Source: Promethearchaeati archaeon (lineage in GTDB: Archaea > Asgardarchaeota > Heimdallarchaeia > JABLTI01). From it: 37,187 nt of DNA. The notes beneath the pieces are model-generated. The model saw nothing but the letters and a program-made list of their open reading frames with translations, ran no database searches and had not been told where the DNA came from. Below are positions 12,448 through 37,159 of the stretch, piece after piece (position 1 is the first letter of the stretch; the number at the start of each line of letters is the position of its first letter). A program made the position numbers and the translations under genes. Location of the stretch: assembly GCA_013166835.1 (NCBI GenBank), contig JABLTI010000017.1, positions 1 to 37,187 on the forward strand. Reading direction: 5' to 3'.

Positions 12448-12524
12448 GCCGTCGTAGCACAGCCTGGTAGTGCGACTCCTTGGTAAGGAGTAGGTCGTGG
12501 GTTCAAGTCCCATCGACGGCTCCA
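12448..12524 (+). tRNA. tRNA-Thr(GGT), intronless, CCA encoded
   Basis: GCCGTCG/CGACGGC acceptor, GCAC/GTGC D stem, ACTCC-TTGGTAA-GGAGT anticodon arm, GTGGG-TTCAAGT-CCCAT T arm. Confidence 0.96.
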
Positions 12525-13010: not shown

Positions 13011-13967
13011 ATGGTTCATAATATTAATGGCGTTACTAAATTTTTGAAGACAAAAGAAGTCTATAAACAGCATCAACAACAAAACCAATACAACGAAATT
13101 ATTATTTCTCTTAAGCAAAAGAATGAATTTGAATTATTAGAAATTGCAAGAAAAGCAAAGAACCGTCACCATAGGGTTTTTGCTGTCCATCTTTTGGGTA
13201 AGCGAAATAGGAAGAAAGCTGAAATTATTTCTCATCTGCGTAAAATTGTTGCTTATGAGCATCGCTCTGTGAAAAATGAAGCTATTTGGGCTTTAGCAAA
13301 GCTTGGTGATAGAAGCATTCAATCTTTATTATTTGAAATTTACTCCACAAATCTTTCTGAATTAGAAAAAAGCCTGACTGTAAAAATGCTCGGAAAAATT
13401 GGTGATGAAAAATCTATAGAGTTTCTTTTAGAAGTAAGTGCTAATTCCCGGAATTTAACAGGTTTGAATGCAGGTGCTGCCGTACATGAAATAATAGACA
13501 AAATTGGTATACAACCGTTAATATGCTCATTAGAAAATGAAACTGATTTAATACGACAGGAAGCAATTTGGATTCTCTGTGCAAGGTGCAAATTTCTGAG
13601 CAAAAAAAAGGAAAAAAATATCATAATCGAATCGCTAAAAAATAGACTAGATTATGAGAACTCAATTCCTACAAGATTAGCACTTTGTTATAATCTTTCT
13701 ATTCTTAATATTCCTGAGGCTTCACAAGAATTGCTTGTTTTATGTGTTTCCGGAAAAATCCCAACTGAAAGGCAATTATTCTTCCTAAATGAAGTAATTC
13801 GCGCTTTTGTTTATCGTCAAAAAGAATCTTCTCTGAGATTAGTTAAGAAACTAAATACTGCTATCGAGACCGTTGATGCTCGAGGCAGAAATGTTACCAC
13901 AACAAAACTTATTTCTAGATTGGAGAAATCAATAGGAAATTTGGATAAAATATTTGAAATTCTTTAG
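13011..13967 (+). CDS. HEAT/PBS-lyase-like repeat protein
   Basis: Repeated helical motifs VKNEAIWALAKLGD, MLGKIGDEKSIEFLL and LIRQEAIWIL. Confidence 0.75.
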   Translation: MVHNINGVTKFLKTKEVYKQHQQQNQYNEIIISLKQKNEFELLEIARKAKNRHHRVFAVHLLGKRNRKKAEIISHLRKIVAYEHRSVKNEAIWALAKLGDRSIQSLLFEIYSTNLSELEKSLTVKMLGKIGDEKSIEFLLEVSANSRNLTGLNAGAAVHEIIDKIGIQPLICSLENETDLIRQEAIWILCARCKFLSKKKEKNIIIESLKNRLDYENSIPTRLALCYNLSILNIPEASQELLVLCVSGKIPTERQLFFLNEVIRAFVYRQKESSLRLVKKLNTAIETVDARGRNVTTTKLISRLEKSIGNLDKIFEIL

Positions 13968-14008: not shown

Positions 14009-14081
14009 GATTAACACAATCATGTTAACTAAGATTTCTTTCTACTAGCTAATCATTCCGCTGATTAACACATCCATGTTA
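14009..14081. repeat. Two 19-bp direct repeats, each a TAACA-N6-TGTTA palindrome
   Basis: GATTAACACAATCATGTTA (14009-14027) and GATTAACACATCCATGTTA (14063-14081), 54 bp apart. Confidence 0.75.
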
Positions 14082-14119
14082 TATTTAACTATTTAAAAGA
14101 TGGTTACCATATATAATAT

Positions 14120-14271
14120 GGCGAATAGGAAGCTATTGTATCTACAAAAAATCAGCAAGGGTATTGGCGTTGATTTTTATGGGGGTGCAATAGAAAAAGA
14201 TGATAAGAAAATAGTCAAGTCTTCCGTACCCATAGAAGCTTGATGACATTCGGAATCGTCGACTATTCGCC
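14120..14271 (+). ncRNA. Candidate structured ncRNA of unknown family
   Basis: 9-bp closing stem GGCGAATAG/CTATTCGCC encloses three hairpins. G-U wobbles favour the + strand. TTTAAA lies about 25 nt upstream and a T-run follows. Confidence 0.55.
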
Positions 14272-14293
14272 CCTTTTTGGTTATGGGGTATTT

Positions 14294-15154
14294 TTACTTG
14301 GTCTTGGTTTCCATACCAAATTCTTTGATTTTCTCTATTACTCGAATTGTCTCGAGAGTTTCTCTCACATCATGAGTTCTAATTAAGCTGGCTCCATGAA
14401 GAATAGCAATACTGGTAGCTCCTAATGAACCATAAAGACGATCTTTTGGGTCTTTTATATCTAATATTTTACCAATGAATGATTTCCTTGAGAGACCTAT
14501 ACAGATGGGTTGCTTCAATTTATCAGTTAACGATTGTAAATGTGTTAAAATATGTGCGTCTATTTTATACCATTTATAATCTTCAATTCTATGAAAACCA
14601 ATATCTGGATCTACGATTATTTTGTCTAATCCGATTCCTGCTTCTTGAGCTACTTTTAGTGAATGTTCTAAAGATGCAATAACTCTCTCTGTAGGATTTC
14701 CTTGAAAACGGTGTAATTGTGTTGCTCCAAGAATTATTGGCACATCAAATTCCACAGCAACCTTTGCCAGCTTAGGATCATCATTTAATCCTGTAACATC
14801 ATTAATCATTGAAGCACCAATTTCTATAGCTGCTTTAGCAACTTTCGCTCGAGTAGTATCTATTGAAAGCGGTTTTTTTACTTCATCGAGAATGATCTTT
14901 AATCCTTTTACAGCTCTTTCACTTTCTTCTTCTGGGGTAATTTCTGTCTTGAGATAAGGTGCGGTACTTTTTGCCCCAACATCAATAATATCTGCTCCTT
15001 CCTTTACTTGTCTTATAGCAGATTGCAGAATACTCCCCGGACCTGTTTTAATTGATCCTTTATAGAAAGATTCAGGACTGAGATTTATTACTCCCATAAT
15101 TTTTACTTGCTCATCTAAACCAATTCTCAATCCATTAGCTTCAACGATTTTCAT
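14294..15154 (-). CDS. folP: Dihydropteroate synthase
   Basis: IMGVINLSPESFY, GADIIDVGAKST, SIDT, MINDVTG, IIVDPDIGF, SRKSFIG and IRTHDV. Confidence 0.93.
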   Translation of the reverse strand: MKIVEANGLRIGLDEQVKIMGVINLSPESFYKGSIKTGPGSILQSAIRQVKEGADIIDVGAKSTAPYLKTEITPEEESERAVKGLKIILDEVKKPLSIDTTRAKVAKAAIEIGASMINDVTGLNDDPKLAKVAVEFDVPIILGATQLHRFQGNPTERVIASLEHSLKVAQEAGIGLDKIIVDPDIGFHRIEDYKWYKIDAHILTHLQSLTDKLKQPICIGLSRKSFIGKILDIKDPKDRLYGSLGATSIAILHGASLIRTHDVRETLETIRVIEKIKEFGMETKTK

Positions 15155-35617: not shown

Positions 35618-37159
35618 ATGCCAGAAGAAAAAACAACTACACTTGCATTTTACAAAGAACCTTTAGTTTTTGAATTAGAAGAAACAAAATATGAGAGATA
35701 TTCTCCTCCTAGCATTCCTAAAGAAATCAAGAAATCGGTGAAAAAACCGCTTGCATTAATTCCTAAGGAAATGCAAAGAACTGATCCTCCTAACTTGCCT
35801 AAATTAGCAGAATTCCAATTAGCTAGACATTACTTACATTTAGCACAAATGAATTTCACCGTGGATAGTGGGTTTTATCCACTTGGGAGTTGTACAATGA
35901 AATACAATCCAAAAATAAATGATTTCATTTCCACTGACAAACGCGTAGCTATAGCACATCCATTCCAACCTGCAAGAACTGTACAAGGTAATATTAGAAT
36001 ACTTTACGAAACCGAGCAAATGCTTAACGAATTAGCAGGAATGACAAGGACAACATTGCAACCATCTGCCGGAGCACACGGAGAATTAACAGGGATAATG
36101 GTAATTCGTGCATATCATATCGATAAAGGAGAAGGAGAAACAAGAACAGAAGTTATCATCCCAGATAGTGCTCATGGAACAAATCCCGCAACATCAGCAA
36201 TGGCAGGATACAAAACAGTAGTAATCAAATCAAAGAAAAACGGTTTAGTGGATCTCGAAGCTCTGAAAGCAGCAGTTAGTGAAAAAACTGCAGCACTTAT
36301 GCTTACAAATCCAAATACCTTAGGATTATTCGAAGAAGAAATTATTGAAATAGCAAAAATAGTTCATGATGTTGGGGGATTGCTGTATTATGATGGAGCT
36401 AACTTCAATGCAATAATGGGTATTTGTCGACCTGGTGATATGGGATTTGATGCAATTCATTTCAACCTACACAAAACCTTTGGTACTCCTCACGGAGGGG
36501 GAGGACCTGGTTCTGGTCCAGTAGGTGTTGTTGAAAAGCTTGTACCATATCTGCCAAAACCATTGCCTGAATTCAGCAAGAAAACTGGCAAATATTATTT
36601 GAATTTCGACATACCAAAATCGATCGGAAAAATCAAAGGCTTCTGGGGTAATTATAGCGTAATTGTCAGAGCATATGCTTATATGCTTTCGTTAGGAGCT
36701 GAAGGACTTAAGCGAGTATCAGAACAAGCTGTTCTAAATGCTAATTATCTCAAGAAAAAGCTATTAGATTTAGGTGGCTGGGATTTGCCTTTCGCACCTG
36801 AAATTCCACGAAAACACGAATTCGTTTTAGATGGGGAAGAACTCAAGAAAGAAACTGGTATATCCACACTAGATGTTGCTAAAAGACTTCTAGATCTTGG
36901 TTATCATGCGCCGACTATCTATTTCCCATTAATAGTTCATGAAGCACTTATGGTTGAACCAACAGAAACTGAAACAAAACAAACTTTAGATGACTTCACA
37001 GATGCAATGAAACAGATCTTGAAAGAAAGCAAAGAAAATCCTGAAATTGTTCTTAGCGCTCCACAAAATACTCCCGTTGGTCGAATTGATGAAGTCTTAG
37101 CAGCGAAAGAACCAATTCTGACTTGGCGAATGTTGAAACAGAAGGAAGAAGAGAAGTAA
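35618..37159 (+). CDS. gcvPB: Glycine dehydrogenase (decarboxylating) subunit 2
   Basis: [38 protein letters not shown] (PLP lysine) and MVEPTETE. Confidence 0.96.

Follow-up and report, generated by a model that had tools for sequence, protein, structure and literature searches.

In contig JABLTI010000017.1 (assembly GCA_013166835.1), a stretch of 37,187 nucleotides (nt) that was analysed whole and is hereafter called the window, a HEAT-repeat gene on the plus strand (13011-13967) is separated by a gap from a convergent pterin-binding-enzyme gene on the minus strand (14294-15154). What does this gap encode? An original prediction, made from the letters of the window, had placed an RNA with several helices there and read it as a stand-alone, regulated non-coding RNA of an undescribed class, or else as a dual-function RNA carrying a leaderless small open reading frame (sORF). 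Here we report that positions 14120-14273 of the plus strand are a genuine non-coding RNA gene of ~153 nt, the type A member of a previously undescribed RNA family. To our knowledge, few structured non-coding RNAs beyond the universal ones have been described for Asgard archaea. A literature search at the level of listings and abstracts turned up no publication that describes this RNA or a permuted 5S rRNA from Asgard archaea, and the available passages of PMC12918454 contain nothing on either.

A stable and covarying RNA structure on the plus strand

The predicted fold of 14121-14272 on the plus strand has a free energy of -49.1 kcal/mol (z = -5.07), and none of 200 shuffled sequences was equally stable. 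The reverse complement of the same segment reaches only -29.5 kcal/mol (z = -1.38). Because the plus strand is far more stable than the minus strand, the structure depends on G-U pairs and is assigned to the plus strand. The G+C content of the RNA stretch is 40.5%, compared with 27.6% in the adjoining upstream intergenic DNA and 33.7% in the genome to which the window belongs (3.56 Mb, here G000).

BLASTN found one copy of the sequence in this genome and homologues in all 11 other genomes of its taxonomic family (f1, comprising two genera), with identities of 71-98% and E <= 7e-17; in 29 genomes of other families it returned short chance matches only, the best with E = 0.0018. For 11 type-A sequences aligned over 164 columns, RNAalifold predicted 49 pairs, 23 of them compensatory. 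In an alignment of 24 sequences (A3), standard pairs filled 91.2% of the pair cells, against 68.1% after shuffling and at most 45.8% when the pairing partners were slid. Covariation among collected homologues, which the original prediction had named as a check, came out clearly: both sides had changed in 36 of the 49 pairs of alignment A3, and 0 of 500 shuffles attained the observed value in any of five measures.

The fold is a three-way junction, in which a closing stem of 9 base pairs (P1) carries the arms P2 and P3-P3b-P4, which are roughly as long as each other. Features of the gene are collected in Table 1. All sequence strings quoted in the original prediction are present where it had placed them, and three of its helices, namely the closing stem, the long hairpin and the TCAAG..CTTGA hairpin, were borne out by compensatory changes as P1, P2 and P4, respectively. 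Its short 3' hairpin GAC/GTC fared otherwise. This hairpin never covaries, and 7 of 24 sequences cannot form its first pair; the GTC pairs instead over a long range within P3 (GATGA/TCGTC), so that the T-loop-like character proposed for this hairpin also finds no support. The pairing AATAGTC/GACTATT, which had been proposed to compete with the closing stem, is at the level of shuffled sequences (66.1% versus 65.5%).

All paralogue types (see below) share five base pairs at the start of P1 (GGCGA/TCGCC), the strands of the junction, the GAC/GTC of P3 and both internal loops, while the lower half of P2 is conserved inside each type and different between types. Readings of the conserved loops as kink-turn, loop-E, T-loop or hammerhead core were tried by eye and abandoned, as key letters are lost in type B. 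The internal loop TAA/GGAA may resemble the UAA/GAN motif.

Table 1. Coordinates of the RNA gene and its predicted control elements in the window
Feature	Sequence	Position	Strand	Remarks
Distal operator palindrome	TTAACACAATCATGTTAA	14011-14028	+	-109 from first base of RNA
Proximal operator palindrome	TTAACACATCCATGTTAT	14065-14082	+	-55; 7 nt upstream of TATA-like box
TATA-like box	TATTTAAAAG	14090-14099	+	-30 to -21
P1, 5' strand	GGCGAATAG	14120-14128	+	pairs with 14263-14271; 99.5% of cells paired; 4/9 pairs double-changed
Junction J1/2	GAAG	14129-14132	+	A11, A12 and G13 invariant in type-A alignment A1; AAG kept in both paralogue types
P2 arm		14133-14193	+	long G-U-rich hairpin; 18/20 pairs double-changed; minimum-free-energy fold
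P2 apical loop	AAGGGTATTGGC	14157-14168	+	
Kissing element, P2 loop	GGGTAT	14159-14164	+	complementary to 14226-14231
Junction J2/3	AAAAA	14194-14198	+	A-rich, near-invariant across all types
P3-P3b-P4 arm		14199-14260	+	order: P3, internal loop, P3b, internal loop, P4
P3 helix	GATGA/TCGTC	14199-14203 with 14256-14260	+	fourth pair (alignment 111-176) double-changed in 13/24 sequences
Internal loop between P3 and P3b	TAA/GGAA		+	nucleotides kept in all paralogue types
P3b helix	GAA/TTC	14207-14209 with 14249-14251	+	2/3 pairs double-changed
Internal loop between P3b and P4	AATA/GACA		+	nucleotides kept in all paralogue types
P4 hairpin	TCAAG..CTTGA	14214-14244	+	loop 14225-14234; 11/12 pairs double-changed
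Kissing element, P4 loop	GTACCC	14226-14231	+	partner of 14159-14164
Junction J3/1	GA		+	between 3' strand of P3 and 3' strand of P1
P1, 3' strand	CTATTCGCC	14263-14271	+	followed by CC, then TTTTT
Oligo-T run	TTTTT	14274-14278	+	putative terminator

Complementary loops at the tips of the arms

The apical loops of P2 and P4 contain complementary elements, and this complementarity is maintained with different letters in each paralogue type. By eye, P2 GGGU(AU) faces P4 (GU)ACCC in type A, and GGAUUG faces CAAUCY in type B1; the B copies of genomes G009 and G011 use AGGA with UCCU and GAGAGA with UCUCUC, respectively. In type B1' up to 9-10 bases are complementary. In types B2/B3, GGGA in a 3' bulge of P2 was matched by eye with UCCC of P4, and the best-scoring B2 pairs of the script were others. 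The mean loop score was 12.39 for cognate and 10.74 for non-cognate combinations over 18 distinct loop combinations; the cognate value was reached by 79 of 20000 permutations, a figure that is not a true probability because the sequences are related. In G006, both types A and B use the same GGGU:ACCC pair, and the arms of the window copy both measure 24-26 layers. The shared loop pair and the equal arm height speak for a kissing contact within one molecule, by which the arms would be kept side by side.

Paralogues and distribution of the family

A covariance model of type A (R1) detected a much diverged second paralogue in the same genomes, such as the one at G000:C72:6279-6438 with 89 bits. 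A model built from both types (R2) gave 27 matches in 12 of 12 genomes of family f1, with 2-3 matches per genome, which fall into types A, B1 (and B1') and B2/B3. The second copy in the window's own genome, of type B1, scores 131.9 bits with R2; it faces a convergent PolX-like gene, and its two operator sites (see below) stand at -108 and -55. Under stricter filters, R1 matched none of 71 other genomes of the class and R2 none of 149 other genomes sampled from the phylum; since the filters were stricter and many of the genomes are incomplete, absence outside f1 means not found in those searched. As found, the family is confined to one family of two genera of Heimdallarchaeota-labelled archaea.

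Pattern searches led to the same lineage. A degenerate pattern hit 68 stretches of a metagenome collection, of which 12 were confirmed by R2, and 34 stretches of a species-genome collection, where 14 were true and all belonged to this lineage. A proteobacterial match to the pattern (27.6 bits) contained many non-pairs and was judged to be chance, and none of five stretches from viral contigs was true. When R2 was run on five genomes of other families, three matches of at most 18.5 bits appeared, in which the conserved core was missing on reading. The core pattern GGCGA..AAGAC..GTC..TCGCC, searched in 83 genomes of the class, had one match outside the family (in G036), which is unlike the RNA. 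Among the records that hold the RNA together with syntenic genes, L259 and L268 (DATKZI01...) are titled 'Candidatus Bathyarchaeia archaeon' and L252 (JAYEJY01...) 'Promethearchaeati archaeon'; these titles are probably imprecise.

Predicted promoter, operators and terminator

Upstream of the RNA lie two palindromes, unseen in the original prediction, which follow an 18-bp consensus TTAACA-N6-TGTTAA. The palindrome at -109 is the sole 12/12 match in the 3.56-Mb genome. At a threshold of at least 11/12 the genome contains 14 sites; three of these precede the two RNA genes, and about half of the 14 are inside open reading frames. Of 30 distinct upstream regions from the family, 27, with all paralogue types among them, have a site of at least 11/12 between -97 and -115, and the -55 site is present at 10/12 or better in all 14 type-A upstream regions and in two type-B1 regions. 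An A/T-rich TATA-like box stands at the same distance in every homologue upstream region inspected by eye, and operator and box keep fixed distances to 14120. At the other end, at least four T follow P1 in 28 of 29 distinct homologues, the exception reading TTTCTT.

Archaeal RNA polymerase terminates at oligo-T, and the TATA-like box is assigned as promoter from archaeal promoter geometry. Since the box and the T-run bracket the RNA exactly, we infer that transcription begins with the first G of P1 and that primary transcript and mature RNA are identical. Thus, the transcript is predicted to start at or near 14120 and to end at the T-run. Inspection by eye of the regions before 20 tRNA genes, the RNase P RNA, the signal recognition particle (SRP) RNA and the 5S rRNA of the same genome showed no comparable operator. 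Because the operator recurs in all paralogue types and nothing alike precedes these housekeeping RNAs, a dedicated dimeric transcription factor that binds the predicted operators would control all paralogues together. This conserved palindromic operator lends support to the earlier view of a regulated RNA. The operator lies directly upstream of the region of the transcription factor B recognition element and TATA box, a position that suggests activation.

A loose genome scan with TGTTW-N8-10-TATA gave 44 uninformative matches, and a composite scan for operator plus TATA gave four, of which only this RNA gene was convincing. In addition, an 11/12 operator-like site at G000:C143:4911-4928 precedes an SBF-family transporter gene by 121 nt, near the -109 spacing; this gene may be a further regulon member, or the site may be there by chance.

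Known RNA classes and coding potential

A search of the whole window with Rfam 15 at gathering scores returned two tRNAs only (12448 and 18780) and no known family at the locus. A permissive search of 361 nt (E up to 10) added six sub-threshold matches, which were judged to be chance, and no Rfam family recurred over 12 homologous loci. ARAGORN called the same two tRNAs and no tRNA or transfer-messenger RNA (tmRNA) at the locus. The RNA family matches no described RNA class, as the original prediction of a stand-alone non-coding RNA of undescribed class had supposed. Its tmRNA-like idea is opposed by the negative ARAGORN result and by the tandem stops, which are not conserved.

Several classes were considered singly, and most were rejected. 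The best of the sub-threshold matches, to the purine riboswitch (RF00167), had 23.9 bits (gathering score 37; E = 0.21) and covered 14089-14199, a register that takes in promoter sequence; no downstream gene lies on the same strand. For box C/D RNA, UGAUGA at 14241-14246 occurs in type A only, type B having GCAAGAC, and no CUGA stands near the 3' end; for H/ACA RNA, no ACA stands there. Matches to snoRNA families of Rfam had 14-17.5 bits against gathering scores of 37-44. The SRP RNA (RF01857) and RNase P RNA (RF00373) models had no match at the locus and found full-length copies elsewhere in 5 of 5 genomes; in the window's own genome, the RNase P RNA scores 109 bits and the 308-nt SRP RNA 110 bits. 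Even the permissive search (361 nt, E up to 10) gave no match to the 5S rRNA model (RF00001), and the 5S gene of this genome is on another contig. The remark in the original prediction that SRP, RNase P and 5S motifs are missing was therefore correct, the genome encoding those RNAs elsewhere. For Y RNA (RF00019/YrlA), no Rfam match was obtained at E up to 10 and no Ro60 was found in five genomes. A miniature inverted-repeat transposable element (MITE) or other repeat was discarded in view of the one BLASTN copy, the 2-3 diverged and syntenic copies per genome and the large share of double-changed pairs.

The 41-codon frame at 14118-14243, on which the sORF idea was built, is present in the window; it is not conserved and is not a gene. 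Its ATG is found in 4 of 29 distinct homologues, the others having TTG, CTG or CCG. An in-frame stop precedes codon 41 in 21 of the 29, insertions and deletions shift the frame, and the peptides are unrelated past the first residues. With neither start, frame nor peptide conserved, the dual-function and leaderless sORF readings find no support.

Apparently permuted 5S rRNA genes in the class

Because the three-way topology resembles that of 5S rRNA and Rfam finds no 5S in the family, the 5S gene of the window's own genome was sought. Weak 5S matches of 13.8-16.4 bits on contig C173 led to a gene at G000:C173 ~37007-37158 (L149:1516-1667) with the motifs GGAAGUUAAGCC, GGGAAC and CCGAUCCCGGAA. 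In this gene the order is permuted. The 3' half (GGAAGUUAAGCC...GGGAAC) comes first and is followed by the 3' strand of helix I, a tetraloop, the 5' strand of helix I and the 5' half ending in loop C. The tetraloop is UUCG, UGCG or CUCG, and a new terminal stem closes the molecule. For nine permuted sequences, RNAalifold predicted 36 pairs, 21 of them compensatory, with helix I as a capped hairpin. Further permuted genes were found at L146-L148 and L150 (f1), L139-L141, L143 and L145 (f2), L137, L138 and L142 (f6) and L144 (f4). Among 83 genomes of the class, only four contain a match above the cut-off of the Rfam 5S model, and on inspection by eye two of the four (~80 bits) seem bacterial.

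Circular permutation thus appears to be a feature of the 5S rRNA genes in this class. A permuted 5S elsewhere in the genome disposes of the 5S reading of the present RNA. In PMC8813620, the 5S genes of two closed Heimdallarchaeum genomes are said to be ones that 'could not be predicted', which circular permutation would explain.

Neighbouring genes

In all 13 type-A loci whose downstream flank is long enough to show a gene, which come from both genera, 16-25 nt separate the RNA from the 3' end of the convergent pterin-binding gene; in three others the sequence breaks off too close to the RNA for a downstream gene to be seen. Over all types, 33 loci show a downstream gene. It is convergent and begins 13-72 nt past the RNA in 30 of them, and co-directional at a distance of 137-729 nt in the other three. 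B1/B1' copies mostly face the PolX-like polymerase gene, and B2/B3 copies face a GT4 glycosyltransferase gene. The neighbours are unrelated between paralogue types, which argues against a cis-regulatory role. A transcription factor or RNA-binding protein was sought among the neighbouring genes, and none was found.

Some features of the flanks may be added. In three other genomes the type-A RNA is preceded, at a distance of 270-620 nt, by a tRNA gene of the same strand (L039:884-987, L041:1128-1230, L042:2178-2251); two of these matches are 103-104 nt long, and an intron is probable. The nearest tRNA in the window is tRNA-Thr at 12448-12524. Directly after the T-run and before the stop codon of the convergent gene, GGTTATGG at 14279-14287 is conserved among type-A loci; at the same place, ACTTTGG or ATGTAC is conserved in type-B loci.

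A possible link to rtcB

An intergenic 11/12 site (G000:C49:4810-4827) lies 232 nt before the sole rtcB gene of the genome (PF01139, 571 bits), which is not adjacent to the RNA genes. Among the rtcB loci of the genus, the site is present at 10/12 or better in 10 of 10 and at 11/12 or better in eight. A second, weaker copy ~33 nt downstream ends 7 nt before a TATA-like box, which is the spacing of the -55 site of the RNA. The same transcription factor may control rtcB also, as the conserved positions of the sites suggest. By our estimate, tens of 11/12 sites are expected by chance in such an A+T-rich genome; hence, the link rests on positional conservation, and we treat it as a lead and not as a result. 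If the tie to RtcB is true, it would suggest that archaea possess a regulated system for ligating or repairing RNA to which a dedicated RNA belongs.

The region before rtcB (G000:C49:4810-5041 = L283:1311-1542; L288-L295, L297) also includes a leader of ~130-170 nt with a conserved element of ~60 nt. In this element a stem GUGAG/CUCAC, of which compensatory variants occur, closes over the hairpin CGG-UCUUU-CCG, and the sequence GAGUCUGAWAC is conserved; six of 12 predicted pairs are compensatory in seven sequences. This element may be a cis-regulatory RNA of the ligase gene.

Proteins of the Ro60/TROVE type (PF05731) were found in none of five genomes, while the control was positive in Deinococcus and Bacteroides. 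A Y-RNA-like role of the present RNA, if there is any, would thus be independent of Ro.

Mode of action and alternative explanations

We propose that the RNA acts in trans under the control of a transcription factor and works through its fold, by binding protein as the scaffold or decoy of a ribonucleoprotein (RNP). We give this reading a probability of roughly 0.5. A dimer of the transcription factor at the -109 and -55 palindromes would control all paralogues together, and transcription would start at the first base of P1, with the TATA-like box at about -26, and end at the T-run after P1. The loop-loop contact would then lock the two arms side by side in a 'tuning-fork' shape, in which the conserved junction and internal loops might form a protein-binding surface. 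The RNA would in this way serve as RNP scaffold or decoy in trans, rather than as a coding RNA or a simple antisense RNA. Several points weigh against this proposal. The transcript and both its ends are deduced from sequence. Inspection of the RNA by eye revealed neither a kink-turn nor an ACA box nor any other known signature of protein binding, and the neighbouring genes, differing between paralogues, give no hint of function. In types B2/B3 the GGGA is in a side bulge of P2 ~10 layers below the P4 loop, so that the parallel-arm model does not fit all paralogues. The narrow distribution could reflect a lineage-specific and dispensable role. As to rtcB, the link depends on motif similarity in a genome with 14 sites of at least 11/12, and in the second genus rtcB has only a 10/12 site at another position.

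Other modes of action in trans have been weighed. Bacterial and methanogen small RNAs pair with target mRNAs, and the A-rich stretch AGAAAAAGAYNAYAAGAAAAUA (J2/3 and the 5' side of the P3 arm) might likewise be a seed for U-rich mRNA sites, with the remaining fold serving stability. It is true that the longest conserved unpaired sequence of all paralogue types lies in this stretch, and that paralogues under one transcription factor site resemble bacterial small RNA families. However, part of the stretch is paired in P3/P3b with compensatory changes, a low-complexity A-rich seed would be unspecific at 34% G+C, and the junction, two internal loops and loop-loop contact exceed what a seed needs; we therefore regard a base-pairing regulator as unlikely. 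A partner RNA of an RtcB-centred ligation or repair regulon, analogous to bacterial Y RNAs, or else a substrate or regulator of RtcB, is a doubtful reading also. The palindrome of the same type with the same 7-nt TATA spacing before rtcB in the genus speaks for it, as do the terminal stem formed by the ends, the paralogues and the loop-loop 'elbow' module known from Y RNAs; against it stand the negative searches for Ro60/TROVE in five genomes and for Y_RNA/YrlA at the locus, a regulon deduced from one motif whose rtcB site is poorly kept in the second genus, and RtcB as the single and presumably housekeeping tRNA ligase of these genomes. In its widest form, the family would be the RNA arm of a transcription factor-controlled RtcB regulon, an archaeal and Ro-independent counterpart of the Y-RNA/RtcB system, or the core of a new ribozyme or RNP with kissing loops and junction as active or binding site; this we hold to be rather improbable. 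Covariation does not separate loop pairing within a molecule from pairing between molecules, B1' has up to 9-10 complementary bases and the partner in B2/B3 is at a different arm height, all of which would suit RNAs that assemble into dimers or rings, as phage phi29 pRNA and the RNA-only assemblies described of late do. Yet the GGGU:ACCC pair shared by A and B of G006 shows that paralogues are not orthogonal, the arm heights in type A are equal and none of the five viral pattern matches was true, which leaves self-assembly a low probability.

Control in cis has still less in its favour. Here a ligand-sensing fold would decide on read-through of the T-run into the convergent pterin-binding gene, and both the convergent gene shortly after the RNA in 30 of 33 loci and the likeness of a three-way junction with kissing loops to the purine riboswitch layout agree with this. 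However, the convergent genes are unrelated between paralogues, three of the 33 loci are co-directional, and the orientation bias is not significant, as there are only ~3-4 independent contexts. Moreover, archaeal termination needs no hairpin switch, and the weak purine match aligns to promoter sequence and not to the RNA structure, so we consider cis or antisense control very improbable. For a 41-residue peptide made from a leaderless sORF or a dual-function RNA, the ATG at 14118 with its frame and tandem stops is the one point in favour; start and frame decay among homologues as described above and substitutions track base-pairing, not codons, so that the chance of a coding role is slight. 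Least weight of all goes to the idea, largely refuted, that a known RNA (5S, the SRP Alu domain, RNase P, tRNA) is present here in divergent or permuted form, or that the sequence is a repeat. It could draw on the shared three-way topology of 5S, on the Rfam 5S model finding nothing above cut-off in f1, and on the permuted 5S genes of the class, by which known RNAs can escape detection; but a permuted 5S, an RNase P RNA and an SRP RNA are all encoded elsewhere in the genome, no tRNA or tmRNA is called at the locus, and 2-3 syntenic copies with compensatory changes are unlike a mobile repeat.

Compensatory helices, a covarying tertiary contact, paralogues and a dedicated promoter operator are combined in this family, which makes unusually clear evidence for it. 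The family is thus a ready experimental target in a lineage near the root of eukaryotes.

Comparison with known systems

In the general layout of the fold, the purine riboswitch aptamer is similar. This 'tuning fork' with L2-L3 kissing also has P1 and two side-by-side hairpins with paired loops, and its conservation lies in the junction strands. However, the arms of our RNA have ~24 layers compared with 7 bp, and the RNA is a stand-alone gene with its own predicted promoter and terminator and no downstream open reading frame on the same strand. 5S rRNA shares the three-way junction, a 9-bp end helix, two irregular arms with conserved internal loops and a similar size; the RNA differs in that the 5S loop motifs are missing, and no loop-loop contact is described for 5S. 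The SRP Alu domain likewise has two stem-closed hairpins with tertiary G-C pairs between the loops, whereas the present RNA has much longer arms and lacks a UGUAAU-type turn, a helix 5 and an S domain. The phage phi29 pRNA resembles it in the terminal stem formed by both ends, the three-way junction and two covarying complementary loops. Unlike that RNA, the present family is chromosomal, syntenic and not viral, and its loop pairs are not orthogonal between paralogues.

With regard to gene organisation, bacterial Y RNAs are comparable. In bacteria, YrlA and YrlB belong to an rsr-yrlBA-rtcBA operon. Y RNAs have ~100-150 nt, a terminal stem formed by their ends, coexisting paralogues and a loop-loop module, features that recur here, and rtcB may be under common control with the RNA as well. 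In contrast to Y RNAs, Ro60 was not found in the genomes searched, the genes are not in an rtcB operon, and no tRNA-like T or D arm was recognised. GlmY and GlmZ belong to a different domain of life and have no sequence or structure homology to this family. Nevertheless, they are homologous structured RNAs of ~150-200 nt in one genome with conserved upstream transcription factor sites, and one of them is a protein decoy. By analogy, a protein decoy of the GlmY/GlmZ type is proposed as the working model for the RNA at 14120-14273.

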